A model generated the notes under the pieces. That model ran no database searches. It saw nothing but the letters and a program-made list of their open reading frames with translations, and was not told the DNA's origin. Source: an uncultured Eubacteriales bacterium (GTDB lineage Bacteria > Acidobacteriota > Aminicenantia > Aminicenantales > CALLJL01). Taken from it: DNA of 64,000 bases. The stretch lies in contig CAZVIN010000083.1 in assembly GCA_964627255.1 (NCBI GenBank), positions 86,114-150,113 of the forward strand, written 5' to 3'. Positions 35,361-48,123 of this stretch are shown here, piece by piece. Position 1 is the first letter of the stretch, and every line of letters begins with the position of its first letter. A program made the translations under genes and the position numbers.

Positions 35361-36380
35361 CTAAAATCGATGATAGATGTTAATAATATCCTTAAGTAAA
35401 GCGGCTGCGGCTCCCCGCGGGTCAGATTGACCGCCAATGAGAGTTATAGTACCCATGGAGTCGGTGACGAAAGATATGCCTTTATTTGTTCCGTCGACAA
35501 AAAAAAGAGCGTGCGAGGGGTTAAGGAGTTCTGGCCTAACCTTAGCCCTGATTGAATCATTCTGTTTCCAGAGAGAACCGATAAGCTTAAATTTTAGTCC
35601 TTTTTGTTTTGCCCTCCTTAACTCTTCAGGGGTAAGCTGGTTAATTCCCACTACTGCCATTTCCTCGAGCTTCAGACAGACCCCAAAAAAAGCGGCTGAA
35701 AGGAGGGCTAATTTGACCGCTGTGTCCCAGCCCTCCACATCATAAGCCGGGTTCTTTTCGGCAATACCTTTTTCCTGGGCTTCCTTTAAGGCCTCGGAAT
35801 AAGAAGACCCTTCGGCCATCCGCGTCAGGAGGTAATTAGAAGTTCCGTTAAGGATACCTTCTACCCGCCTAATTTCTGCGCCCGCCAAGGAAATAAGGCC
35901 GACATCAAGGGCCGGCAGAGCAGCGGCCGTGGCCCCGCTAAATTTGAGCCGAAGATTGTTTTCCTTAGCCAAATTATGAAGCTCGGAGAAATAAACCAGA
36001 AGCGGTCCTTTGTTGGCAGTCACCACGTGCCAGCCTGAAGTAAGGGCTTTTTTTATATGGTCATAGCCTGGCTGACCGGTTTTCAGGTCAGAAGTAGTTA
36101 CTTCAACCATGACGCCCGGTGTCCCTTGGTGGAGTAAGGAATCAAGCGATGGCCGACTGCTCCAGGAGCCTGGGTCATTTATTTTATTTACCAAGGCTCT
36201 TTTATCCAAATTCTCTACTTTCTCATCAAGAAGCAAGGCTGAAGAGCGCCGCAAAATCGCCTTGAGGCTGAAAGCGAGGCCGTATTTTTCCCTCAATTCA
36301 GCTGCTTTGGCGGCTAACAATTCGGCAAAGGCCCGGCCGACAGGACCAAAGCCGACCAGAATAATGGGAAAAGTTTTCAT
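35361..36380 (-). CDS. Homoserine dehydrogenase-like NAD(P)-dependent dehydrogenase (short form, no ACT domain)
   Basis: Rossmann N-terminus 'ILVGFGPVGRAF'. 'GTSNYLLTRMAEG...AQEKGIAEKNPAYDVEGWDTAVKLALL' resembles the Hom catalytic/dimerisation region. Start taken at the internal Met (MKTFPI). Confidence 0.5.
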   Translation of the reverse strand: MKTFPIILVGFGPVGRAFAELLAAKAAELREKYGLAFSLKAILRRSSALLLDEKVENLDKRALVNKINDPGSWSSRPSLDSLLHQGTPGVMVEVTTSDLKTGQPGYDHIKKALTSGWHVVTANKGPLLVYFSELHNLAKENNLRLKFSGATAAALPALDVGLISLAGAEIRRVEGILNGTSNYLLTRMAEGSSYSEALKEAQEKGIAEKNPAYDVEGWDTAVKLALLSAAFFGVCLKLEEMAVVGINQLTPEELRRAKQKGLKFKLIGSLWKQNDSIRAKVRPELLNPSHALFFVDGTNKGISFVTDSMGTITLIGGQSDPRGAAAALLKDIINIYHRF

Positions 36381-36381
36381 C

Positions 36382-38190
36382 TTACCGCTTTTTTTGCGCT
36401 CTGACGATAGCCTTGGGCTGCTTGAGAATGGCCTCGACAATTTTTCCCGCTTCATCTTTAACAAACTCAACACTATAATTGGGGATATTTTTTATCCTAA
36501 ATTCGTATCCTCTATAAGGCTCCAATTCTAGCTCGGGCTGATTAGGAATTTGGAGGGAAAGGGTGTCTTCTCTTTTAAGAATAACTTTGATTGTTATCCC
36601 TTGGAATTCATACTCGCCTGCCAACGGTTCTAAAAAGCTCCTTTCTCTCATGGTTTTATCGCCCAAACGAGTAAAAACAATTTCTTTCACCGCCGGTTCA
36701 AGTTGGAGAGAAAGAGAGGCGATGTGGCCGTTAAGGTCAGTCTGAAAACTTAGTTTTTCTTCCAGCCCAAACCTTTTATTTTCGGCCCAGAAAACATCAT
36801 AATGAAAATGCGTAAGCTTTAAGTCGAAAGCGTGAAATTGGGCTTGCAGTTGAGCGCCGTTTTTGGTTACTGTAATCACTCCATAACCTGGATTTTCATA
36901 ATCACCAACATAATCTTCTAAAGGATGAGAGGGACTCGTCCCTTCTTTTCGTCCCTGGAATTTGTCCTTTCTTATTTTTTCAGCCTGCTCCTTAGCTTTC
37001 TTGGCTTCTTCTTTAAACCTTTGGTTCCACGGGATTTCCGGCAAACGAAGCAACCGGTCAATTAAACTATAGCTCAGAATTTGAGGTAGAGGCGTTCCAT
37101 TCAGGTTAGTGAGGATTACCAGCCCTATTTGGTCTTGAGGCAAAAGGGCTACCAGAGCCGAAAAGCCGTCAATTCCTCCGCCGTGGGAAAGCAAAAGATG
37201 GCCGCGATAAGGAGTGATTAACCAGCCTAAGCCATAGCTGGAATAGAGAATTTCGGGAAAGCGAAGCGGGCCAGGAACCACCATCTGGGGAGAATGAATC
37301 TCTTTGAGGGTAGCTTCAGAGACGACCTGTTTGTCGGCATATCTACCTTGACTTAAATTAAAGATTAGCCACTTAGCCATATCCTGAACGTTAGCATTAA
37401 TTGAGCCGGCTGGCCCGATAGCCTCGATAGCGCGAAAGGGAATTGCCTCCACTTGGCCGTTGAATTCTTGATACGGAAGAGAATAATCAGGGGATTGCTG
37501 GGACTCAGCCACCGAAAAATTGGCCTCTCTTATAGTCAGAGGCTCAAGAAGTCTTTGGCGAACAAATTCCTCCCAGCTCTGGTTGGAAACCTTTTCCACC
37601 AGAATTCCAGCCACCATAAACATCAAATTCTGATATTGCCAGAGATAACGGAGGTCCTTACTCGACTCCAGATATGACAAACGAGAGAAGAGCTCTTCTC
37701 GAGAAAAAGAAGAGCCATACCACATTAAGTCGTGTCGAGGAAGCCCTGAACGATGGCAAAGCAGGTCTCGAACCGTCAGCCTTTGTGAAGCCACCGGGTC
37801 CTGGAGTTTAAAGGCGGGCAAATAATCCCGGACCGGTTTATCCCATTCGACCTTGCCTTCGTCCACTAAAAGGCCGACCGCGGTCGCGGTAAAAGCCTTG
37901 GTGCAGGAACCGATGGCAAAAAGAGTGGAAGCAGTGACTGGCAGTTTTTCTTGAATATTCCGAAAACCAAAGCCGTCGGCCATCACCACCTTGCCCTCTT
38001 TTACTACCGCTATCGCTACTCCCGGAACATTCCATTCCCGCCTTGTCTGGTCAATAAAGGAAGCAAAATTTTTCAGTTCCTTAGGTAATGGTTGCAGCCC
38101 AAATAGAGGTAAAAAAATGAAGATTAGAAACAGTAGATAGCCGTAACGACTGTTTTTCTTAAAATAGACCTTTTTCCTTAAGGAGTTCAT
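36382..38190 (-). CDS. Serine hydrolase of the beta-lactamase / peptidase S12 family with an extra C-terminal domain
   Basis: SxxK active-site motif 'GSCTKAFTATAV'. Signal peptide. 602 aa. Confidence 0.7.
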   Translation of the reverse strand: MNSLRKKVYFKKNSRYGYLLFLIFIFLPLFGLQPLPKELKNFASFIDQTRREWNVPGVAIAVVKEGKVVMADGFGFRNIQEKLPVTASTLFAIGSCTKAFTATAVGLLVDEGKVEWDKPVRDYLPAFKLQDPVASQRLTVRDLLCHRSGLPRHDLMWYGSSFSREELFSRLSYLESSKDLRYLWQYQNLMFMVAGILVEKVSNQSWEEFVRQRLLEPLTIREANFSVAESQQSPDYSLPYQEFNGQVEAIPFRAIEAIGPAGSINANVQDMAKWLIFNLSQGRYADKQVVSEATLKEIHSPQMVVPGPLRFPEILYSSYGLGWLITPYRGHLLLSHGGGIDGFSALVALLPQDQIGLVILTNLNGTPLPQILSYSLIDRLLRLPEIPWNQRFKEEAKKAKEQAEKIRKDKFQGRKEGTSPSHPLEDYVGDYENPGYGVITVTKNGAQLQAQFHAFDLKLTHFHYDVFWAENKRFGLEEKLSFQTDLNGHIASLSLQLEPAVKEIVFTRLGDKTMRERSFLEPLAGEYEFQGITIKVILKREDTLSLQIPNQPELELEPYRGYEFRIKNIPNYSVEFVKDEAGKIVEAILKQPKAIVRAQKKR

Positions 38191-38335
38191 CCTGCCTCCT
38201 GAGTTTAGATATCTTCAAGAACCCTAATTTTAAAAAATAAAAAATAAAATAAAAAGCTTTGAATTATTCGAAGTTTTTATGACTGGTTTAGGTCTTCAAA
38301 AAAAACTCTTATGATGGCAGTGAATTCAGCTATAA

Positions 38336-38429
<94 letters not shown>

Positions 38430-38624
38430 CTTACCTTCTTCAATGTATCATTGGAAAGCCCTGAAATCAACGCGCGGCAATACGCTTTTGCCGCCGTTTC
38501 AGGGATTCAATTCTTCTTTATCGTGACCGATTCTTTCAGTTTTGGGAATATATATATCGATTATTTCGCCTGATTAGGAAAAAAGTTAAGCAGAAAAATA
38601 ATCTCTCGTTTTTAAAACTGCTGG

Positions 38625-39128
38625 TTACTGTTTTGCCTTTTCTCTTCTCCTAAATTGAAAAAAACTGCGCAAAAGCTTAACGGCCTCCGTCTCTAATAGC
38701 CCACCCTGGACCAGAGGTCGGTGATTAATTTTCTCCCAGGGGAACTTCATAATTGATTGGATTGCCCCAGATTTAGGGTCGAAAGCCGCAAAAATTATCC
38801 GTCTTACCCTGGCCTGGACGGCGGCGCCGAGGCACATCGCGCAGGGCTCTAAAGTGACGAAGAGGTCGCAATCAGCAAGGCGGTAATTCTTCAGGCGGCG
38901 GGCCGCCTTCCTCAGGGCCAAAATTTCGGCGTGCGCCGTCGGGTCTGAACGTCTGATTGGCTGATTATGGGCTCGTGATAAAATTTTCCCGCCAGAAGCG
39001 ACTATCGCGCCTACCGGGACCTCGCCCTCCTCGCCGGCCTTCTCCGCCTCCTTAAGAGCCAGACGCATTATCTCTTCTTCAGTTAATCGAGTTTTCTTTT
39101 TTAGACGCCTTCTTACTTCAGACATCAA
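38625..39128 (-). CDS. tadA: tRNA-specific adenosine deaminase
   Basis: CDA-fold zinc motifs 'HAEILAL' and 'PCAMC'. Confidence 0.85.
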   Translation of the reverse strand: MMSEVRRRLKKKTRLTEEEIMRLALKEAEKAGEEGEVPVGAIVASGGKILSRAHNQPIRRSDPTAHAEILALRKAARRLKNYRLADCDLFVTLEPCAMCLGAAVQARVRRIIFAAFDPKSGAIQSIMKFPWEKINHRPLVQGGLLETEAVKLLRSFFQFRRREKAKQ

Positions 39129-39275: not shown

Positions 39276-40484
39276 ATGGAAAAGTGGGAATGTCTTTTTT
39301 GCGAGGAGCCGCGCGAGGCCAACCTATTTTGGCCGTTTTGCCCTCGGTGTAGCCAACCATTGGTAATTTCTTTAACTCCAAAGAAGCGCTCTTTTAGCCT
39401 AAACAAGCTCTCACCGCTCGAAAAATTCCAGCCCTTTTTGCCCTTGCCTCGCCTCGAAAAAAATCTCTTTCTAGGAGAGGGCAACACGCCTTTGCTCAGG
39501 CTTTATCGTCTGGAAAAGAAAATTGACCTGGCTTTCCCCGTTTATGCCAAGAATGAGATGGCCAACCCGACTCAGAGCTTCAAGGATAGGGGCACGGCGG
39601 TGGTCATTCAAAAAGCTGTCAGCTTAAGAATAAAAAAGATAGGCACAGTTTCTACCGGTAACATGGCCGCCTCTACGGCAGCTTATGGTGCCAAAGCCCG
39701 GCTGAAAACCTTTGTCCTACTTAAAGAAGATGCTGCCTTAGAAAAGACGATTTCGACGGGAATCTACGGAGCGCACCTTATTCAGGTCAAAGGCAATTAT
39801 GGCCGGCTTTTTGAGGAAAGTTATCGGGTCGGAAAAAACTTAGGCATTTATTTTGCTAACTCCTGCGACCCTTATCGCCTCGAAGGCTATAAAGTAACGA
39901 GCTTTGAACTTTATTTTCAATTAAAGCGAAAAATCCCCAGTTATGTTTTTGTCCCGGTAAGCTCCGGTGGTCATCTGCTCGGACTTATTCTCGGTTTTCT
40001 TAACCTGCGAAAGCAAAAATTAGTTGGCCGGTTGCCCCACTTTATCGGAATTCAAGCGGCCGGTTGTGCTCCTTTAGTGCAAGCCTGGGAAAAAGGCGAG
40101 GAAAAAGTCCTGTCGGTTAAAAATCCCCAAACAATAGCTCATGCTATTTCTAACCCTTCCCCGCCCGCAGGCCAGCTGGTTCTAAAGCTCTTGAGAAAAT
40201 ATAAAGGGGAAATGCTGGCGGTCTCGGATGAAGAAATAATGAGGGCTCAGGCTGAGCTGGCCTCCCTTGAAGGATTGTTCTGCGACCCGGCTTCAGCCAC
40301 TACGTGGGCTGGTTTAAAAAAATGGCTGAGCTTCACCACCGCTCGAAAGATAGCCAACGCCGTTCTTATTTTGACCGGTAGCGGCCTCAAGGATTTAACA
40401 CCAGTCAAAGAAAGAGGCAAGATAAGTCTGATTCCCGCTACCCTTCCCTGCTTAGAAGAAGTTCTTTCCTCCTTAGCCTTATGA
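39276..40484 (+). CDS. thrC: Threonine synthase-like PLP enzyme (fold type II) with N-terminal Cys4 zinc ribbon
   Basis: PLP-lysine motif 'NPTQSFKDRGTAV' as in short-form ThrC. N-terminal 'CLFCEE...CPRC'. Confidence 0.6.
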   Translation: MEKWECLFCEEPREANLFWPFCPRCSQPLVISLTPKKRSFSLNKLSPLEKFQPFLPLPRLEKNLFLGEGNTPLLRLYRLEKKIDLAFPVYAKNEMANPTQSFKDRGTAVVIQKAVSLRIKKIGTVSTGNMAASTAAYGAKARLKTFVLLKEDAALEKTISTGIYGAHLIQVKGNYGRLFEESYRVGKNLGIYFANSCDPYRLEGYKVTSFELYFQLKRKIPSYVFVPVSSGGHLLGLILGFLNLRKQKLVGRLPHFIGIQAAGCAPLVQAWEKGEEKVLSVKNPQTIAHAISNPSPPAGQLVLKLLRKYKGEMLAVSDEEIMRAQAELASLEGLFCDPASATTWAGLKKWLSFTTARKIANAVLILTGSGLKDLTPVKERGKISLIPATLPCLEEVLSSLAL

Positions 40485-41459
40485 GCTTCTGGCGGTGACG
40501 AGCGCCTTCAAACCCTCTAAGCTGAGGTTGCCGCCTGAAAGGATTAAAGTGACCTTTTTTCCTTTTAGCTCATCCTTTATTTTTAGCGCGGCAGCTAAGG
40601 CGGCGGCGCCCGCATGTTCGGTTAAGGACCTGATATTCTCGAGATAAATAAGAATGGCTCGAGCCATTTCCTCTTCTGAAACCAGCTGAAAATCATCAAG
40701 ATAAGCCCAAAGAATGGTTTGCGTAAACTCGTAGCCCATCATTGTCTGCAGGCCTTCAGCGGCTGTTTTCATCGGCGCCTGCTGGAGCTTATGGTTTTTC
40801 CAGGAAAGATAGGCGGCCGGTGCCTGTTCGGCCTGAACGGCAATAACCCGGGTTTTTTTACCTTTACCTAAGGCTTCCTTGACTAAGCAACAGCCGCTGG
40901 CCCCGCTACCCCCGCCCACCGGCACGATGACGACCTCTATCTGCGGCTGGTCTTCAAAAATTTCCAGGGCATAAGTGGCCACACCGGCCACTAAATCGGG
41001 TTCATCAGCCGGATGGATGAACCGAGCTCCCTTTTTCTCCGCCAAGCTAAGAGCAAAATCCTTGGCCTCGTCAAATATCTGCCCCTCGAAGATGACCTTA
41101 GCTCCCTGGCTGGCTACGGCTTTAACCTTAACTGGATTCGCTCCTTCAGGCATGACAATCGTCGCCTCAACCCCGAAGAGACGGCAAGCATAGGCAATAG
41201 ACAGAGCGTGATTGCCGGTAGAGGCGGTTACTACTCCGCGGCGCTTTATTTCTGGGCTGAGATGAGCAATAAGGTTGAGGCCGCCGCGCACTTTAAAAGA
41301 ACGCGTGGGTAGATGGTCTTCATGCTTGATAAAAACTTCCGTTCCTACCAGGTCGTTAATTTGAGGATACGAATAAAGCGGCGTTTTAGGCAGAAAAGGC
41401 GCAATGGTTTTTCTGGCTTCGAAAATATCGCCGAGCGTTGGCCATTTTAGTTCTTTCAA
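40479..41459 (-). CDS. Threonine/serine dehydratase-family PLP enzyme (fold type II)
   Basis: 'TRSFKVRGGLN' PLP-lysine motif. 'GGGSGASG' glycine-rich loop. 326 aa, similar in size to catabolic TdcB/serine-racemase-like enzymes. Confidence 0.65.
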   Translation of the reverse strand: MKELKWPTLGDIFEARKTIAPFLPKTPLYSYPQINDLVGTEVFIKHEDHLPTRSFKVRGGLNLIAHLSPEIKRRGVVTASTGNHALSIAYACRLFGVEATIVMPEGANPVKVKAVASQGAKVIFEGQIFDEAKDFALSLAEKKGARFIHPADEPDLVAGVATYALEIFEDQPQIEVVIVPVGGGSGASGCCLVKEALGKGKKTRVIAVQAEQAPAAYLSWKNHKLQQAPMKTAAEGLQTMMGYEFTQTILWAYLDDFQLVSEEEMARAILIYLENIRSLTEHAGAAALAAALKIKDELKGKKVTLILSGGNLSLEGLKALVTARSS

Positions 41460-41501
41460 TTTTTTCTCCTTTTTTCATCGCCAATAAAAATTGGCTGCCT
41501 T

Positions 41502-42575
41502 TTATTTTTTCAGCCTATTTAAGATTTTTTGTCCATAGGCAAAAAGAGCCGGTGTACCGCCGGTATGGAAGAAAACAACGGAATCATTAGGTTTAAAATA
41601 GCCTTGATTGATAAGGTCAATTAAACCCAGCATCGCCTTGGCAGCATAAACCGGGTCCAAGACAATTCCCTCTTGCTGCAGGAGTAGCCGCAAGGTTCGA
41701 GCGACTTTTTTTGAAATGACTCCATAACCTCCTTCGAGGTACTCATCAAAAACAATTATTTCTTCAGGTTTGATATCCAGGGCCAAATCTAAAGCCGCGG
41801 TAGTCGCCCGAGCGATCTTCCATACTTCTTGAGCGAATAATCCTCGCTCCTCGGAAACGCTTATCCCGATAATCTGACACTCGGGATTTAGCAATTTAGC
41901 CCCCACTAATAACCCGGCTTGCGTTGCCCCTGAACCAGTAGCATGAACCACATGCGTAAAAGAATAACCCGCGGCTTTGGCTTGAATCCAGGTTTCATAA
42001 AATGCCTGGACATAGCTTATCGCTCCGAGCGGCAGACTCATCGACCCCAGAGGCATCGACCCGCCCACCGAGACCACATAAGGCCGCAGCCCCTGCGCCT
42101 CGAGTTCAGGGACCAGGCCTTTAATCAGGTTGAGAGCCAATTCCCGGCTAACAACCTTCCCCGGCGGTGCTGGGTGGAAGTAAATTTTTGCGTCCAACAA
42201 GTAATCAAGCAGCAGGTTTCCTCTCGCTGCGGGCAGCTTCTTATCTTGAATAAAAAGAAGAAGAGCTGGTTTTAGACCGAAACGTCGGGCGGCCAGCGCT
42301 GTTTGGAAACACCAGTTAGATTGAACACTTCCCCAGGTAAATATCGCTTGATAATTGTTTTGGACGGCGTCAGCAATAATAAATTCCAACTTCCTTGATT
42401 TATTGCCTCCAAACCCAACGCCGCTCAGGTCATCCCTCTTGATGTAGATCTTTGGTCCCCCGAGGTATTGACTCCAATTGGCAAGGAAGGCCAAGGGCGT
42501 GGGCAAGTGGAGAAAACGAAGGCGAGGCAAAGAAGCAAGCTTAGCAGCAAGTTCCTTTTCTGTTAATAGTGACAT
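41502..42575 (-). CDS. ACC deaminase / D-cysteine desulfhydrase-family PLP enzyme
   Basis: 'GGNKSRKLEFI' is the diagnostic motif of the DcyD/ACCD family. Confidence 0.7.
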   Translation of the reverse strand: MSLLTEKELAAKLASLPRLRFLHLPTPLAFLANWSQYLGGPKIYIKRDDLSGVGFGGNKSRKLEFIIADAVQNNYQAIFTWGSVQSNWCFQTALAARRFGLKPALLLFIQDKKLPAARGNLLLDYLLDAKIYFHPAPPGKVVSRELALNLIKGLVPELEAQGLRPYVVSVGGSMPLGSMSLPLGAISYVQAFYETWIQAKAAGYSFTHVVHATGSGATQAGLLVGAKLLNPECQIIGISVSEERGLFAQEVWKIARATTAALDLALDIKPEEIIVFDEYLEGGYGVISKKVARTLRLLLQQEGIVLDPVYAAKAMLGLIDLINQGYFKPNDSVVFFHTGGTPALFAYGQKILNRLKK

Positions 42576-42584
42576 TGGCCTACC

Positions 42585-42788
42585 TCATTTATCCTGGTGC
42601 CGCGGCTTTTTTTCTGAGGCTAACTCCCCGGCGATACCCCAGCGGCTTTTCGGCACCTCCTGAATAATTACGCGGACAGCCTCGGCTGGTATCCCTAAAT
42701 CAGTAAAAACCTTGGTAATACCATAGATAATTTGTTTGGCTCGGTTGTCATCTAAGCCTTCCCACACATAAGTATGGACTAAGGGCAT
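42585..42788 (-). CDS. 4-oxalocrotonate tautomerase-family protein (67 aa, Pro1)
   Basis: 'MPLVHTYVWEGL...' gives a catalytic N-terminal Pro after Met removal. Beta-alpha-beta size of the 4-OT family. Confidence 0.65.
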   Translation of the reverse strand: MPLVHTYVWEGLDDNRAKQIIYGITKVFTDLGIPAEAVRVIIQEVPKSRWGIAGELASEKKPRHQDK

Positions 42789-42799
42789 AGCAACCTCCT

Positions 42800-44995
42800 C
42801 TATTTCGAATTTTTCTGTTGAGCCTTTAATCCTTGAAGTACCCTCTCTCGAGTCAAGGGAAGCCGAGTTAGTCTGACTCCCGTGCGGTCAAATAAAGCGT
42901 TAGCTAAAGCTGCCCCGACATTAATAATGGCTGGCTCTCCGCCCCCTTGTGGCGGAAAAGAGGGGTTACTTAAGACAACAGCTTTAATTTCCGGCATCCA
43001 GGAGAAACGAGGTATTTCATACCGGTCAAAATTAAGGTCGAGTATTCGGCCTCCCTGAAAATGAATTTCCTCACTCAAAGCATAACCTAGGCCCATCATC
43101 AGGCAGCCTTCAATCTGTTCCTTTGCACCTTCGGGGTTGATGACTTCGCCCATATCTTGGACGCCAGTCATTCTCTTGACCCGAATTATTCCCGTCGCTG
43201 GCTCAACGTCGATTTCAACCATAGCGACAACGTAGGTTCCAAGATAATCAGCGCAGGAAAGCCCCAAACCACGTCCGCTGGGTGGTGGGGCTGGCTTCCA
43301 GCCGAATTCTTCTGCCACCTTTAATAATACTCGTTTCATCCTCTCGTTTGTTAAGTGGCGCAACCTAAACTCAAGCGGGTCGAGGCTGCAACGGGCTGCT
43401 AAGGTGTCAATGTGGGATTCGCGAGCAAAAACGTTGGTATTACTTCCAGGAGCTCGCCAGGGGCCGACGCCGAAAAGATGGCCGGATACTCCGCCTCCCC
43501 AGCCTCCCTTAGAGACAACCCGATAATGGGGAAAATCATAAAAAACTTGGGAACTTCGGTCACCAGCCCAAAAAACCGTATAATCCCAAAAACTGACTCG
43601 GTTATTCTCATCCAAGCCAGACCTAATCTTGACAATAGCGGCCGGCATAAAAGTGTCATAAAAGAATTCCTCCTCGCGGCTCCAGATTACCATAACGGGT
43701 TTGCCCGTTAATTTTGAAAGCCGGGCTGCTTCCACCGCCTGCTGGTTCCGGTTTTTACCACCAAACCCGCCGCCTACATAAACCGGAAATACTCTTACTT
43801 TGTTTATCGGCACTCCTACGGCCTGAGCCACCTCGCTTTGAACTCCAAAAGGCCGCTGCGTGGAGGCCCAGACTTTAACCTCATCTGATTCAATTGTGAC
43901 TAAGGCGGTGTGGGTCTCGATAGGAGCGTGGGCGACATAGGGATTATAATAAGTTTCCTCGACCACCCGGCGAGCCATCTTTTCTCCTTCTTCCAAGCTT
44001 CCTTTCTGGTCCACAACATTGCCAGCCGGTGCTGCTTCTATTAAATGTTCATGAATATTTTCGTTCGAAAGCGGTACATCGGGAACCTCAAACTCGGCTT
44101 TGACCATCTTTAGCGCTCTATCTGCGGCGTCAAAAGTGGGGTGAAGGACAGCAATCAAATCGCCATCCTGAATAATTTGGATATCGGGAATTTTCTTTGC
44201 TTCTTCCAGGTTCAAGCTTTTTAATTTGGCTCCGTGGGCCGGCGGCCTTATAAGACGGGCATAAAGCATATTAGGTAGCATTATGTCGCCGGTATAAAGT
44301 GATTTCCCCATTACTTTTTCCCAAGCGTCTAAACGCGGCTCCGGTTGACCAGCCAGACGATGTTTTTCCACCGGCTTGGGCTGAGGTCTTCCGGTCACTA
44401 ATCGCTCTATTCTTTTACCCTGAGTAAGCTGGCCATAGGCGACTCTAATTGGGCGGTTTTGGCGGTCAAAGATAAACCCATTTTCCGTTTCCAGCCGGTC
44501 AATTGGCACCCGGAGTCTTTCTGAAGCCAACTCCAAGAGAACAGACCGGGCTTCAGCCGCCGCCTGACGGAGGGCGGGACCGAAATACTTGATTGTCCTG
44601 GAGCCAAATGTTCCCATATCCCAGGGACAAAGGGCAGTATCGCCAAGAACCATGTCAACCTTATCCAGACTGATATCGAGCTCTTCGGCCAAAATCTGGG
44701 CTAAAGCGGTTTTGATACCCTGGCCCAGCTCCACCTTGCCCGAAAAGCAGCTGACCCGGCCATCTTCGCGAATAAGAAGGTAGGCATTAAAATCTTCGGG
44801 GTTTTCCCTTTGCCTGGCTTCTTGTTGGGCCCAGGATAAAAAAGAAGGAGGCTCCCCGACAAAGAAAAAAACGAAAAGACCGCTGCCGCTTATTTTCAGG
44901 AAGTCACGACGACTGAGAAGCGAAGAAGAATAATCTATAATATTAGTTTTAGCACTCAAAAGTTCAGCTTCTTCCCATTTTTCTCTCTGACTCAT
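42800..44995 (-). CDS. Molybdopterin-dependent hydroxylase large subunit (xanthine dehydrogenase / aldehyde oxidase family, IorB-like), Tat-exported
   Basis: Twin-arginine motif 'SRRDFLKISGSGLFVFF'. Mo-hydroxylase 'GGGFGGK' motif. About 730 aa. The likely start at 44995 forms an ATGA overlap with the small subunit; the ORF track extends to 45070. Confidence 0.75.
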   Translation of the reverse strand: MSQREKWEEAELLSAKTNIIDYSSSLLSRRDFLKISGSGLFVFFFVGEPPSFLSWAQQEARQRENPEDFNAYLLIREDGRVSCFSGKVELGQGIKTALAQILAEELDISLDKVDMVLGDTALCPWDMGTFGSRTIKYFGPALRQAAAEARSVLLELASERLRVPIDRLETENGFIFDRQNRPIRVAYGQLTQGKRIERLVTGRPQPKPVEKHRLAGQPEPRLDAWEKVMGKSLYTGDIMLPNMLYARLIRPPAHGAKLKSLNLEEAKKIPDIQIIQDGDLIAVLHPTFDAADRALKMVKAEFEVPDVPLSNENIHEHLIEAAPAGNVVDQKGSLEEGEKMARRVVEETYYNPYVAHAPIETHTALVTIESDEVKVWASTQRPFGVQSEVAQAVGVPINKVRVFPVYVGGGFGGKNRNQQAVEAARLSKLTGKPVMVIWSREEEFFYDTFMPAAIVKIRSGLDENNRVSFWDYTVFWAGDRSSQVFYDFPHYRVVSKGGWGGGVSGHLFGVGPWRAPGSNTNVFARESHIDTLAARCSLDPLEFRLRHLTNERMKRVLLKVAEEFGWKPAPPPSGRGLGLSCADYLGTYVVAMVEIDVEPATGIIRVKRMTGVQDMGEVINPEGAKEQIEGCLMMGLGYALSEEIHFQGGRILDLNFDRYEIPRFSWMPEIKAVVLSNPSFPPQGGGEPAIINVGAALANALFDRTGVRLTRLPLTRERVLQGLKAQQKNSK

Positions 44996-45471
44996 GACTT
45001 GCCTCCTCTGAGAATGGCTACAGCCCTTTCTACGGCGTGAACAATCCGCTGATGAGCCCCGCAGCGACAAAGATGGTCGTCAAGGGAGTTGATAATTTGA
45101 TCGCGGCTTGGCTTGGGCGTCTTCTGAAGCAAAGCATAAGCCTCAAGAATCATACCACTTGTACAGAAACCGCACTGGAAAGCCTCCTGCTTGAGAAAGG
45201 CTTCCTGAAGAGGATGGGGTTTTCCGTTTTGGGCCAGGCCTTCCAGGGTCACAAGCTGACGTCCGTTTATCCGGCCCACCTCTGTCTGGCAAGAGCGGAC
45301 CGGTTCGCCATCAATTAGAACCGTACAGGCCCCGCAATAACCCTCCCCACAGCCAAACTTGGGACTGGTTAGCTTTAGGTCATTCCTAAGAACCCAGAGT
45401 AAAGGCCGGGTATTCTCAACTTCTATGCTGATAAACCGCCCGTTAAGATAAAAAGAAACTTTTTGATTCAT
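44992..45471 (-). CDS. [2Fe-2S]-binding small subunit of molybdenum hydroxylase (IorA/CoxS-like)
   Basis: Two 2Fe-2S motifs: 'CGEGYCGACTV' and 'CGFCTSGM...C.C'. Confidence 0.8.
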   Translation of the reverse strand: MNQKVSFYLNGRFISIEVENTRPLLWVLRNDLKLTSPKFGCGEGYCGACTVLIDGEPVRSCQTEVGRINGRQLVTLEGLAQNGKPHPLQEAFLKQEAFQCGFCTSGMILEAYALLQKTPKPSRDQIINSLDDHLCRCGAHQRIVHAVERAVAILRGGKS

Positions 45472-45594
45472 GCTTCCTACCCTCTTTTTTGTTTTTCAGA
45501 GTTAATTTTATCTCCCCCGAAAAAAAAAGAAAGATTTTTGTGGACTTGATTAGGCAAATTTAAAAAGATAAAAGTAGTAAAAAGGAGGCGAGTA

Positions 45595-48123
45595 ATGAAA
45601 AAAGGGAAAAGAAGTAGCCTTCTTTATCTTTATTTTAGCCCATTTATTTTTTCTATTTTACTTTTTGCCTCATGCCAGAAAGCAAAAAGCCCTCACGTCA
45701 TAGGCTTATCCGGAGAAGAGGCATCCTGGCCAGCACCATTTCCTTGCCGGGTCGAGGACGGAGATAATCCGGACCTTTTCCTCCTAAGCTTAGGAAAAAT
45801 AACCACGCCTTTGGCCAAGGCTACCTATGACCCGGTTCAAGATAAGGTTACTTTAGATGATGGCTCGGTGATAGAGGGGTATTTTCGCGAGAAATTAAAA
45901 ATTAAATATTTTTCGCCGATAGAAAAAACCGTCTTCCCCCTACCACCTTCAGGCTGGTGTTCCTGGTATTATTATTATCGGGAAATTAACGAGGCCGAAA
46001 TTATCAAGAACGCCCACTGGTTAGCCGAAAATCTCAAAGAATACGGAGCTCTCTATTGTCAGGTTGATGATGGTTGGCAGGGCCGGGGAAGCGAAAAAGG
46101 CAACTATCGGGATTGGTCAACCGTTGACCCGCGCTTCCCTTCAGGGATGGCGGCTCTGGCCGCGAAGCTCAGGGAATTCGGCCTTAAGCCTGGGATTTGG
46201 TTAGCACCTCACGGCCAGAGCAACCCGGAAGTAGTAAAAAAATGGGGCGCTTTCTTGGTGGATGAAAACGGCGAGTCGCTTTCCCGGACCTGGGAAGGAG
46301 ATTATCTCTTAGACCCCTCCCGACCCGAAGCTCGGAACTATTTGGCCGATTTATTTCGGACATTATCCGAGGATTGGGGATATGATTATTTTAAAATAGA
46401 TGGACAGCCGATAGTAGTGCGGGAATACAAAAATAAATTTTCTCTGATGAAAAACCCAACTGGAGAAGCCGAAGAGCTTTATCGGCAAACAATTAAGACA
46501 ATTCGCGACACCATCGGTCCGAGTAGATATCTCTTGGGATGTTGGGGAATCCCGCTGGAAGGAATTGGGTACATGAATGGTTCTAGAACAGGTGGAGATA
46601 TTGTCATTCCTTGGGAAGGTTTCTTGGTAGCCTTACAAGCGACGATGCGCTATTACTTTCTTCACAACATAGCCTGGTATTGTGACCCTGACGTGATGCT
46701 GGTCAGGTATCCCTTGACCATTGACATGGCCCGAGCCTGGGCCACCCTGCAAGGTTTAACCGGCCAGGCTTTAATGGCCTCAGATTGTCTTTATGACCTG
46801 CCCGCAGAAAGAGTGGAAATTCTGAAAAGAGTTTTTCCCGCGGTTGATATCCGGCCAATGGATTTATTTCCCGTTGAACAGAATAAAAGAATCTGGGACT
46901 TAAAGATTCATCATTTAGGCCGCGATTATGACGTGGTGGGTTGTTTTAATTTCGAGATTAGCGAGTCTTCTGGCCTCGAGCTCAAGTGGTCTGACCTTGG
47001 ACTTCCTGAAGGTGCCTTAGTCCACGTTTTTGATTTTTGGAACCAGGAATATCTGGGTTGCTGGGAAAAGGGAATTTATGTTCCCCTTAACCCGGCGAGT
47101 GTTCGCGTTTTCGCCCTTCACGTGGCAACCTCTGAACCTCAGCTTATTTCTACTTCCCGTCATATCACTCAGGGTTGGGTCGATTTGAACTCCCTCAGCT
47201 ATGATTCCGCGAAGAAAAAAATGAACGGGAAATGCCAGGTTATTGCCCACGACCCCTATGAATTACGTTTTGCTTGGCCACGGCAGGAAAAACTCCAGAT
47301 AATTCGAGCTAAGGTGGCCGGTGCCAAGGTGCAAATCAAGAATTTTCAAAACTGGGGAACAGTGAGTTTCATTCCCCAAAAATCGAAGGAAGTGAGTTGG
47401 GAAATTGAATTCGGACCAGCCGAGGTTTACTCCTTTCCTCCTCGGTCTCCCAGCCGTCTTCAGGCCGAACCCTTAGGTTTAAACGGCCTTCGACTTCATT
47501 GGGCTCCGCTTTATTACTTGTGTGCTGGCTATTTGATATCTGTGGATAACGGGGCCGTTTTATATACGCCCGTGCCTGAGGCGCTGGTTACATCTATAGA
47601 CCCTCATCAAGAGCATTTAGTGAGCGTCCAATCAGTGTGGTGGGACGGAACTTCGAGCCCCGAGCCGGCAACAATAAAGGTAAAGCCCAGCAGCCTTCTT
47701 CCCCCCGAAATCTTTTTGGAAACACTTCGGCCCCAAAAAATGACTGCGGGCTGGGGTCGAGTCAGGATAAACCGGTCAGTTTCAGGCGCCGAGCTGAAAA
47801 TCGGCAATCGTTCTTATTTAAGGGGTATTGGCACCCATGCGCCGTCGGAAATTATTTTCCCTATTTTAGGCCTCTTCCGCTGGTTTGAAGCTGAGGTGGG
47901 CGTTGATGCCGCTTCGCCTCGGCAGAGAGGCTCAGTAGAATTTATTGTGTGGGGTGATGGCCGCGTTCTCTGGCGAAGCGGTCTGATGAAAGCAAACACG
48001 CCAGCTCGAAGATTCCGTCTGGATATTAGCCGCGTTCAAGAACTCAGGTTGGAAGTCATAGACGGTGGCGACGGAATAGAAAGTGACCACGCCGATTGGG
48101 TTATGCCGCGTCTAATTCGTTAG
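45595..48123 (+). CDS. Lipoprotein glycoside hydrolase of the GH27/GH36-like (alpha-galactosidase/melibiase) class with C-terminal NPCBM-type carbohydrate-binding module
   Basis: Lipobox 'LLFASC'. 'YCQVDDGWQ' catalytic-region motif. The C-terminal ~120 aa resemble the NPCBM domain ('GIGTHAPSEI...DHADWVMP'). Confidence 0.6.
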   Translation: MKKGKRSSLLYLYFSPFIFSILLFASCQKAKSPHVIGLSGEEASWPAPFPCRVEDGDNPDLFLLSLGKITTPLAKATYDPVQDKVTLDDGSVIEGYFREKLKIKYFSPIEKTVFPLPPSGWCSWYYYYREINEAEIIKNAHWLAENLKEYGALYCQVDDGWQGRGSEKGNYRDWSTVDPRFPSGMAALAAKLREFGLKPGIWLAPHGQSNPEVVKKWGAFLVDENGESLSRTWEGDYLLDPSRPEARNYLADLFRTLSEDWGYDYFKIDGQPIVVREYKNKFSLMKNPTGEAEELYRQTIKTIRDTIGPSRYLLGCWGIPLEGIGYMNGSRTGGDIVIPWEGFLVALQATMRYYFLHNIAWYCDPDVMLVRYPLTIDMARAWATLQGLTGQALMASDCLYDLPAERVEILKRVFPAVDIRPMDLFPVEQNKRIWDLKIHHLGRDYDVVGCFNFEISESSGLELKWSDLGLPEGALVHVFDFWNQEYLGCWEKGIYVPLNPASVRVFALHVATSEPQLISTSRHITQGWVDLNSLSYDSAKKKMNGKCQVIAHDPYELRFAWPRQEKLQIIRAKVAGAKVQIKNFQNWGTVSFIPQKSKEVSWEIEFGPAEVYSFPPRSPSRLQAEPLGLNGLRLHWAPLYYLCAGYLISVDNGAVLYTPVPEALVTSIDPHQEHLVSVQSVWWDGTSSPEPATIKVKPSSLLPPEIFLETLRPQKMTAGWGRVRINRSVSGAELKIGNRSYLRGIGTHAPSEIIFPILGLFRWFEAEVGVDAASPRQRGSVEFIVWGDGRVLWRSGLMKANTPARRFRLDISRVQELRLEVIDGGDGIESDHADWVMPRLIR

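Follow-up and report, generated by a model that had tools for sequence, protein, structure and literature searches.

The window, by which we mean the whole 64,000-nucleotide stretch of DNA that was analysed, carries five adjacent minus-strand genes that are a lineage-specific composite of known families; their full arrangement is confined to one genus-level clade. We think it probable that they form a composite transcription unit in which three modules of independent evolutionary origin are combined, namely a molybdenum (Mo) hydroxylase with its [2Fe-2S] (FeS) subunit, a small tautomerase and a pair of PLP enzymes, and that they do not make up one pathway. The host is an Aminicenantes (OP8) MAG belonging to a genus of uncultured hot-spring Aminicenantes. 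Aminicenantes are abundant uncultured degraders of sediments and hot springs, and a literature search returned no paper that joins them with these enzymes.

Layout and transcription of the locus

In agreement with the preliminary description, the open reading frames and their translations, together with Pfam and NCBIfam, place all five genes at positions 40479-45471 in the order and families that it had claimed. The features of the locus are as follows.

39276..40484, plus strand: threonine synthase ThrC, a neighbour outside the unit (TIGR00260 thrC, 186.7 bits, cut-off 167.1)
40479..41459, minus strand: accessory threonine/serine dehydratase (serine-racemase-like), 326 aa, here called TD-like (PALP, 240 bits)
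41502..42575, minus strand: D-cysteine desulfhydrase / CuyA-family fold-type-II PLP enzyme, 357 aa, here called DcyD-like (NCBIfam, PDB match)
42585..42788, minus strand: 4-oxalocrotonate-tautomerase (4-OT)-family protein, 67 aa (PF01361, 36.7 bits, cut-off 22)
42800..44995, minus strand: molybdopterin subunit, IorB / membrane-bound aldehyde dehydrogenase type, 731 aa (Pfam, PDB alignment)
44894..44914, minus strand: twin-arginine motif S-R-R-D-F-L-K, with a hydrophobic stretch and SWA-QQ behind it (translation of the Mo subunit)
44992..45471, minus strand: [2Fe-2S] subunit of a two-subunit molybdenum hydroxylase, IorA/PaoA-like, 159 aa (Fer2, Fer2_2)
45472..45594, minus strand: presumed promoter region, the sole sizeable intergenic stretch 5' of the five genes
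45595..48123, plus strand: GH27/36-like glycosidase with an NPCBM domain, a neighbour (Pfam)

The genes follow each other as FeS, Mo, tautomerase, DcyD-like and TD-like. The measured gaps of -4, 11, 9 and 42 nt bear out the earlier statement that all junctions are at most 45 nt and that one is an ATGA overlap; this overlap joins the FeS stop to the Mo start, with the Mo ATG inside it. The preliminary description read the five genes as one new catabolic route, in which an enamine or imine from the PLP enzymes would pass to the tautomerase and the Mo enzyme would oxidize an aldehyde or N-heterocycle, and we consider this improbable. The ATGA overlap and the gaps of 9-42 nt speak for such a route, but short gaps are the genomic norm: 25 of the 35 same-strand neighbour pairs in the window lie 45 nt or less apart (median 10 nt), and the tight spacing of the five genes is not special there. 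In compact genomes like this one, short junctions, even start/stop overlaps, connect unrelated genes, so that what looks like an 'operon' in one genome alone may have come about recently by chance.

All five-gene junctions carry Shine-Dalgarno sites and leave almost no space for internal promoters, so that co-expression is likely and the five genes are probably co-transcribed. The 42 nt gap between the DcyD-like and TD-like genes contains a small hairpin that lacks a T-tail on the coding strand. The presumed promoter region is common to the five-gene unit and the divergent GH27/36-NPCBM gene. A consensus promoter scan found no site within it, and promoter and terminator scans of the window against shuffles gave no enrichment (7 versus 5.7 and 10 versus 11.8).

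On the other side, the neighbour that had been called threonine-synthase-like does converge on the TD-like gene, with a 6 nt overlap. It passes the thrC equivalog cut-off and is part of an order-wide ThrC-TadA-homoserine dehydrogenase backbone, and hence does not belong to a catabolic route.

Enzymes encoded by the five genes

Both cysteine motifs of the FeS subunit, C-x4-C-x2-C-x11-C and C-x2-C-x31-C-x-C, are present in the translation, which has no signal peptide. The Pfam domains of the Mo subunit are arranged as MoCoBD_2, hammerhead, MoCoBD_1 and MoCoBD_2, which is the permuted IorB type, and its residues 24-719 form a single colinear alignment with residues 13-762 of PDB entry 8gy3_C, the aldehyde dehydrogenase large subunit of a membrane-bound enzyme of Gluconobacter. 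The locus shares with 8gy3 and isoquinoline 1-oxidoreductase IorAB, both FAD-less members of the xanthine-oxidase family, a small subunit with two [2Fe-2S]-binding motifs, a large subunit of permuted domains with a putative twin-arginine signal, a GGGEP motif near the large-subunit C-terminus and the lack of an FAD (CoxM/XdhB) subunit; the sole PF00941 (FAD_binding_5) gene in the genome, C84:16221, adjoins the other Mo enzyme. It differs from 8gy3 in that the match is low (189.7 bits) and no gene for a cytochrome c third subunit is adjacent, and from both in its host, an anaerobic or thermophilic member of the Aminicenantes. The hydroxylase missed the cut-off of every NCBIfam equivalog. The two subunits would make up a self-contained FAD-less hydroxylase that probably oxidizes a periplasmic aldehyde or N-heteroaromatic compound and may pass its electrons to an acceptor encoded outside this locus.

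The preliminary description called this hydroxylase Tat-exported. The SRRDFLK motif, the hydrophobic stretch behind it and a TatC gene elsewhere in the genome (contig C109) agree with this, and the Mo subunit is predicted, from its motif, to be exported to the periplasm. The tautomerase, DcyD-like and TD-like proteins carry no signal peptide and look cytoplasmic. This predicted difference in compartment, a Tat signal on the Mo enzyme and none on the PLP enzymes or the tautomerase, counts against a single route.

As had been proposed, the 67-residue protein is a Pro1 tautomerase: it begins Met-Pro, matches PF01361 and aligns from Pro1 of the 4-OT structures in PDB alignments. Like 4-OT (DmpI/XylH), it consists of one β-α-β unit of about 60 residues with an N-terminal Pro1, a counterpart of Arg39 and, at position 50, an aromatic residue. 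Unlike 4-OT, it has Leu in place of Arg11, as judged against 7puo and related 4-OT chains, and it has no meta-cleavage pathway context. Arg11 and Arg39 of 4-OT bind the two carboxylates of 2-hydroxymuconate, with Arg11 holding the distal one, and a protein without Arg11 is therefore expected to use a substrate other than 2-hydroxymuconate. Judged by these residues, it is a member of the family by fold and not a 4-OT by function. All NCBIfam cut-offs were missed, and the genome has no other PF01361 gene.

The closest NCBIfam model for the DcyD-like enzyme is that of the D-cysteate sulfo-lyase CuyA (312 bits, cut-off 450), ahead of ACC_deam_rel (252 bits, cut-off 289) and the DcyD models (223-231 bits, cut-offs 429-610); all were missed. 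Its best PDB match is 7ysk, a D-Cys desulfhydrase. Residues Asn58, Lys59, Ser86, Asn87, Tyr310 and Thr338 are invariant in 14 members of its clade and correspond in the alignment to Asn50, Lys51, Ser78, Asn79, Tyr287 and Thr315 of StDcyD, the roles of which have been described (PMC11193023). The window protein thus shares with CuyA and DcyD the fold-type-II family, the PLP lysine, the Ser-Asn pair, the catalytic tyrosine and the threonine of HTGG, and since these are kept, D-specific α,β-elimination would be expected. The clade differs from StDcyD by an invariant Trp-Cys in place of His80-Val and by a seven-residue insertion, and the window protein is the only one with Ala in place of Thr behind the catalytic tyrosine.

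ACC deaminases have Glu after the catalytic tyrosine and Leu in H-L-G-G. The active-site comparison suggested earlier, ACC against D-Cys, comes out in favour of the desulfhydrase: its residues are kept, those of ACC deaminase are absent, and the assignment as an ACC deaminase is ruled out by Y-A and H-T-G-G as well as by a TIGR01274 score of only 177 bits against a cut-off of 392. An analogy between the PLP pair and CuyA-CuyB was also ruled out, as CuyB is a PLP-independent PF01177 cysteate racemase (PMC11193023) and no PF01177 gene is adjacent. The window holds no PF01177 gene, and the best match in the genome, the only good family member, lies on contig C114.

The TD-like gene starts with TTG behind an AAGGAG site and its product has no ACT domain. 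It shares with TdcB, Thermus TD and serine racemase a single PALP domain, the SFKVRG lysine motif, S-x-G-N-H and a glycine-rich loop. It matches the catalytic domains of IlvA and TdcB and the serine racemases about equally (approximately 160-172 bits), and all NCBIfam equivalogs fall below cut-off, the best being 271 versus 378.75 and 265 versus 317. It differs from these enzymes in being a second, accessory paralogue that is linked to a DcyD-family gene. A housekeeping IlvA beside ThrC and homoserine dehydrogenase is ruled out by the order-wide threonine/serine dehydratase on contig C124 (366 bits, cut-off 371) and by the patchy distribution of TD-like orthologues, which is tied to the DcyD-like gene.

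Distribution of the modules among Aminicenantes

In 20 genomes of the order the backbone reads HSDH-(S12 hydrolase)-TadA-ThrC-[HflKC-like pair and/or TD-like]-DcyD-like-GH3, and the DcyD-like gene occupies the same position in 38 of 41 related genomes. Within the 20-genome comparison, FeS-Mo-tautomerase together with the NPCBM glycosidase occurs in genomes of the same genus only. Likewise, among the compared genomes this glycosidase stands beside FeS-Mo-tautomerase in the genus-level clade only (L013, L014 and L159), with L159 having a shorter, Melibiase-only gene at this position. Gene-neighbourhood conservation had been set beforehand as the test of the single route, with a lack of conserved synteny as a refuting result. 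The route fails this test, the five-gene synteny being confined to this one clade. There the order is kept in every examined genome although the proteins have diverged to 61-77% identity, which is a point in favour of a common route. The flanking genes are equally syntenic, however, so that the conserved order is weak support for a functional link. Outside the clade, none of the loci compared has the Mo module, tautomerase and PLP pair side by side, and this unlinking, with the predicted difference in compartment, argues against the claim that they serve one route.

The FeS-Mo module is widespread in Aminicenantales, at shifting genomic sites. Of 151 genomes of the order, 97 have orthologues of the Mo subunit at 53-74% identity, and all 16 loci inspected outside the genus are on other contigs or at other positions. 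FeS adjoins Mo in 15 of the 16, which are all those that include the upstream flank, and none has a tautomerase or DcyD-like gene beside Mo. A search of eight wider contexts found no neighbours common to several loci.

Tautomerase orthologues at 65-73% identity are limited to the genus, with the rest of the order having 30-39% paralogues elsewhere. A 66% relative shows the identical five-gene order, and relatives at 58-61% are found in unrelated contexts, with an SDR gene or a NADAR-Memo pair next to them. We describe the tautomerase as a probable orphan 4-OT-family gene that takes this position in this genus only. It might serve the Mo hydroxylase, by tautomerizing the hydroxylated product or readying the substrate, in which case a two-part module would have landed beside the PLP pair. 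The 11 nt junction with a strong ribosome-binding site after the Mo gene fits this, as does the fact that a tautomerase is seen at this position only together with the Mo module. Nevertheless, such a link is very unlikely given that 0 of the 16 Mo loci outside the genus have a downstream tautomerase, and that a protein without a signal peptide, whose Pro1 has to be freed by removal of Met, should stay in the cytoplasm, whereas the Mo enzyme is predicted to leave it.

The DcyD-like and TD-like genes are the truly conserved unit. In Aminicenantes a TD-like orthologue nearly always follows immediately after the DcyD-like gene, and among 75 TD-like loci this arrangement is seen in about 55 Aminicenantes loci. 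Only three of these 75 loci, each of them in the genus, have FeS-Mo-tautomerase, and the Mo-linked rows form one clade on the TD-like tree (SH-aLRT 99, quick IQ-TREE). In the Thermogemmatispora, Thermodesulfobacteriota, Actinomycetota and Thermomicrobiales loci no TD-like neighbours are common across lineages; two Thermogemmatispora genomes have neighbours common to each other only.

A link between the tautomerase and the PLP pair, with the Mo enzyme as a bystander, was weighed as well. Here the 4-OT homologue would aid the enamine-to-imine step or detoxify 2-aminoacrylate or 2-aminocrotonate. The 9 nt junction between the tautomerase and DcyD-like genes is compatible with this, and so are the loss of Arg11, which points away from 2-hydroxymuconate, and the finding that two other Aminicenantes genomes carry a 4-OT gene at a locus where the genus has none. 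However, none of the approximately 55 other Aminicenantes loci has a tautomerase beside the PLP pair, the nearest relatives of the tautomerase sit in unrelated contexts and the genome encodes RidA. We know of no enamine/imine tautomerization activity in the tautomerase superfamily, and the literature search brought up no paper on one. In our judgement there is little chance that the two are linked in this way.

Chemically, a single route gains from the fact that DcyD- and TD-type PLP families both release 2-aminoacrylate-type intermediates. On the other hand, RidA is a known handler of enamines and imines, and two RidA genes lie elsewhere in the genome. A full-text literature search yielded no paper joining the tautomerase superfamily with 2-aminoacrylate. 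The xanthine-oxidase family is also not known to accept the 2-oxo acids that lyases of this kind make.

Proposed roles and origin of the arrangement

In seven loci the two PLP genes enclose a gene for a Peptidase_M55 / DppA-type D-aminopeptidase, of which two further loci retain C-terminal remnants. On the TD-like tree this link was seen in a single clade of 40 rows, and it was not seen in the genus of the window itself. Judged from the predicted family of the intervening gene, the arrangement points to D-amino-acid or peptide catabolism, which gives the earlier suggestion of a D-amino-acid substrate some support, from relatives. In Aminicenantes generally, the DcyD-family lyase is almost universal, often with a second dehydratase/racemase-like PLP enzyme and sometimes with a D-aminopeptidase. 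This arrangement suggests that Aminicenantes degrade peptide-derived D-amino acids, which may stem from cell-wall debris. Most likely, the cytoplasmic PLP pair turns peptide-derived D- or β-substituted amino acids into 2-oxo acids and ammonia. Candidate substrates would be of the D-Cys, D-Ser, D-cysteate, Ser or Thr type, with or without release of H2S or sulfite.

For the composite transcription unit, we propose that in the ancestor of the genus a glycosidase-FeS-Mo-tautomerase block came between the GH3 and DcyD-like genes. The PLP pair would now probably be read from the promoter of the Mo enzyme. Co-expression in the genus clade could reflect a newly selected functional link. It is unlikely that this amounts to a new pathway of the genus, with a periplasmic Mo hydroxylase and a laterally acquired, Arg11-less 4-OT homologue recruited in front of a D-amino-acid lyase pair. 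We equally doubt the example of such a pathway in which a D-, sulfur-containing or heterocyclic amino acid is degraded and the tautomerase acts on an enamine or imine product of the PLP enzymes.

As regards the origin of the DNA, the stretch was found in two hot-spring DNA runs only and in no listed RNA run, and the two DNA runs may be its source.

Gene content and packing of the five-gene unit

The unit was defined from the six-frame ORF list, the translations and the minus-strand sequence, and these bear out the five co-directional genes of the preliminary description within positions 40479-45471. Pfam and NCBIfam concur with its family names, and the junctions between successive genes are indeed tight (-4, 11, 9 and 42 nt). 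A Shine-Dalgarno-like site precedes every start.

Genes of the unit and their convergent neighbour
44992-45471, minus strand: [2Fe-2S] (FeS) subunit of a molybdenum hydroxylase, 159 aa
42800-44995, minus strand: molybdopterin (Mo) subunit, 731 aa; ATG overlapping the FeS stop as ATGA
42585-42788, minus strand: tautomerase of the 4-oxalocrotonate tautomerase (4-OT) family, 67 aa; Met-Pro start
41502-42575, minus strand: PLP enzyme of the DcyD/ACC deaminase family (DcyD-like), 357 aa
40479-41459, minus strand: PLP enzyme of the threonine/serine dehydratase family (TD-like), 326 aa; AAGGAG followed by a TTG start
39276-40484, plus strand: ThrC, convergent, with a 6-nt overlap with the TD-like gene

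This packing is not special within the window. In a greedy ORF map, gaps of at most 45 nt separate 25 of the 35 same-strand neighbour pairs (median 10 nt), including clearly unrelated pairs such as S12 hydrolase/homoserine dehydrogenase and GH3/purine permease. The five genes are probably transcribed together from the 123-nt region 45472-45594, because the unit has no other intergenic space. Such co-transcription would be a by-product of rearrangement and not the mark of a shared pathway.

The molybdenum hydroxylase and the tautomerase

The window belongs to a 3.09-Mb MAG (93% complete), and its DNA is present in hot-spring metagenome runs. The FeS, Mo and tautomerase genes and a divergent NPCBM glycosidase lie between GH3 and the DcyD-like gene in genomes of the same genus only, the exception being one metagenome lineage in which the FeS-Mo-tautomerase block has the same placement (tautomerase 66% identical). 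Of the order's 151 genomes, 97 have an orthologue of the Mo subunit (53-62% identity). The 16 loci examined outside the genus are all at other genomic positions; FeS adjoins Mo in 15 of them, that is, wherever the upstream flank could be read, and none of the 16 has a tautomerase or DcyD-like gene beside it. No common neighbour of the Mo orthologues was found in eight wider contexts. The window's genome has a single Mo orthologue and the module was therefore relocated rather than duplicated. On the TD-like tree the four Mo-linked rows form one clade (SH-aLRT 99), and the juxtaposition therefore has a single origin.

The preliminary description had read the five genes as one new catabolic route. 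Their order is retained within the genus clade, but this says little because the flanking genes there are equally syntenic; outside this clade the modules are unlinked at the loci compared, which is the absence of conserved synteny that the description itself had named as refuting, and we consider a unified route improbable. The Mo module, the tautomerase and the PLP pair are thus shown to be three modules of different evolutionary histories. Their combination is an accident of gene order at the level of the genus, and each protein is a new, uncharacterized member of a known family.

The N-termini also differ. That of the translated Mo subunit is of the Tat type (S-R-R-D-F-L-K followed by a hydrophobic stretch) and TatC is encoded in the genome, while those of the tautomerase and both PLP enzymes look cytoplasmic. 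The FeS subunit would hitch-hike to the periplasm with its Tat-targeted partner, where the enzyme would oxidize an aldehyde or an N-heteroaromatic compound. The domain order of the Mo subunit (MoCoBD_2, hammerhead, MoCoBD_1, MoCoBD_2) is that of IorB, and the protein aligns end to end with chain C of PDB entry 8gy3, the large subunit of a membrane-bound aldehyde dehydrogenase from Gluconobacter. A GGGEP motif near the C-terminus presumably, by analogy, holds the catalytic glutamate of the family. The only FAD_binding_5 gene of the genome lies next to another, unrelated Mo enzyme (contig C84), and the window enzyme is therefore of the FAD-less two-subunit type. This second hydroxylase (C84, 13909-16862; MoCoBD_1 219 bits) is of the three-subunit type and is 33% identical to the window Mo subunit; similar matches (31-34% identity) are found in many genomes of the order.

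Orthologues of the tautomerase (65-73% identity) are confined to the genus, while other Aminicenantes carry paralogues of 30-39% identity at other loci. A global search yielded no more than 13 close homologues; relatives of 58-61% identity either adjoin an SDR gene, on a contig resembling archaeal DNA, or form part of a tautomerase-NADAR-Memo arrangement. Pro1 and the Arg39 equivalent are retained, as is an aromatic residue at position 50, but Leu takes the place of Arg11. The tautomerase is encoded directly after the Mo subunit, but with no tautomerase beside any of the 16 non-genus Mo loci examined a functional link to the Mo enzyme is unlikely. Service to the adjoining PLP enzymes, whose pairing extends far beyond the genus, has an equally small chance of being correct; RidA is a known handler of enamines and imines, and two RidA genes are present elsewhere in the genome. 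In two other Aminicenantes genomes (G004, locus L057, 632-2652; G012, locus L058) a 4-OT match is flanked by genes of 247 and 286 aa. Their counterparts in the window's genome (contig C56, 20207-21900) are adjacent and only about 95 bp apart; in the genus, therefore, this locus is devoid of a 4-OT gene, and the only one follows the Mo enzyme.

The conserved PLP pair

The DcyD-like gene is present in 38 of 41 related genomes. Its backbone in 20 genomes of the order reads homoserine dehydrogenase, (S12 hydrolase), TadA, ThrC, a variable slot, DcyD-like and GH3, where the slot holds the TD-like gene, an HflK/HflC-like SPFH pair or both. In the window, 35361-39128 corresponds to the homoserine dehydrogenase, S12 β-lactamase-family hydrolase (with DUF3471), TadA and ThrC block of related loci. 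Most of the 20 order-level loci have this block, sometimes with single genes missing, and in other genomes the SPFH pair separates ThrC from the PLP genes. The upstream GH3 scores best as a NagZ-type β-N-acetylhexosaminidase, below the cut-off and barely above glucosidases.

ACC deaminases typically carry a Glu and Leu pair, which is absent from the DcyD-like protein. Its best NCBIfam model is CuyA (312 bits versus a cut-off of 450). Residues Asn58, Lys59, Ser86, Asn87, Tyr310 and Thr338 correspond to Asn50, Lys51, Ser78, Asn79, Tyr287 and Thr315 of the D-cysteine desulfhydrase StDcyD, which contact the PLP-substrate complex (PMC11193023). The Ser-Asn is followed throughout the clade by an invariant Trp-Cys (window residues 88-89) where StDcyD has His80-Val, and the clade has a seven-residue insertion; both are possible specificity determinants. 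In the window protein the insertion reads P-L-G-S-M-S-L (about 174-180) and precedes the conserved PLGA-SY segment. Ala replaces Thr after the catalytic Tyr in the window protein alone. No racemase of the CuyB family (PF01177; PMC11193023) adjoins the DcyD-like gene.

At about 55 of the recovered Aminicenantes loci the DcyD-like gene is immediately followed by a TD-like orthologue (at least 60% identity); in one genome that position holds just a truncated remnant. A paralogue of 30-38% identity is also present in every genome, and that of the window's genome (contig C124) nearly reaches the threonine/serine dehydratase equivalog cut-off (366 versus 371 bits). The TD-like gene of the window therefore encodes an accessory enzyme, and we rejected its assignment as the housekeeping IlvA. 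Outside Aminicenantes, orthologues of 48-65% identity stand alone and no neighbours are common across lineages; two Thermogemmatispora genomes share neighbours with each other only.

The two PLP genes flank a Peptidase_M55 gene at seven loci.

Peptidase_M55 genes and remnants
L117, 5982-6941, plus strand: Peptidase_M55; also at L129, L107, L151, L087, L153 and L122
L133, 1030-1152, and L112, 6853-6966: C-terminal remnants of about 40 residues

The family is that of DppA-type D-aminopeptidases (Pfam 342-351 bits; NCBIfam DppA 241 versus a cut-off of 430). The remnants at two loci suggest repeated loss of this gene, and this fits the scatter of M55 loci within a single clade (40 rows) of the TD-like tree. 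The cytoplasmic PLP pair would deaminate D- or β-substituted amino acids, supplied by import or released by a D-aminopeptidase. It is this Aminicenantes-wide pair, with M55 in some lineages, that merits experiment.

The PALP-family genes of the window's genome number only five (TD-like, ThrC, DcyD-like, the C124 threonine/serine dehydratase and a TrpB-like gene), and no CysK/CysM-type cysteine synthase was seen among them in this 93%-complete MAG. Three loci labelled Syntrophaceae/Thermodesulfobacteriota (L085, L113 and L115) have TD-like orthologues of 64-65% identity without a DcyD-like neighbour. These group with Aminicenantes in a starred clade (SH-aLRT 100), through lateral transfer or else because the contigs were mis-binned. 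The labels 'uncultured Eubacteriales' and 'Clostridiales' look wrong for many species-representative MAGs, which have the Aminicenantes backbone synteny and fall within Aminicenantes in the TD-like tree.
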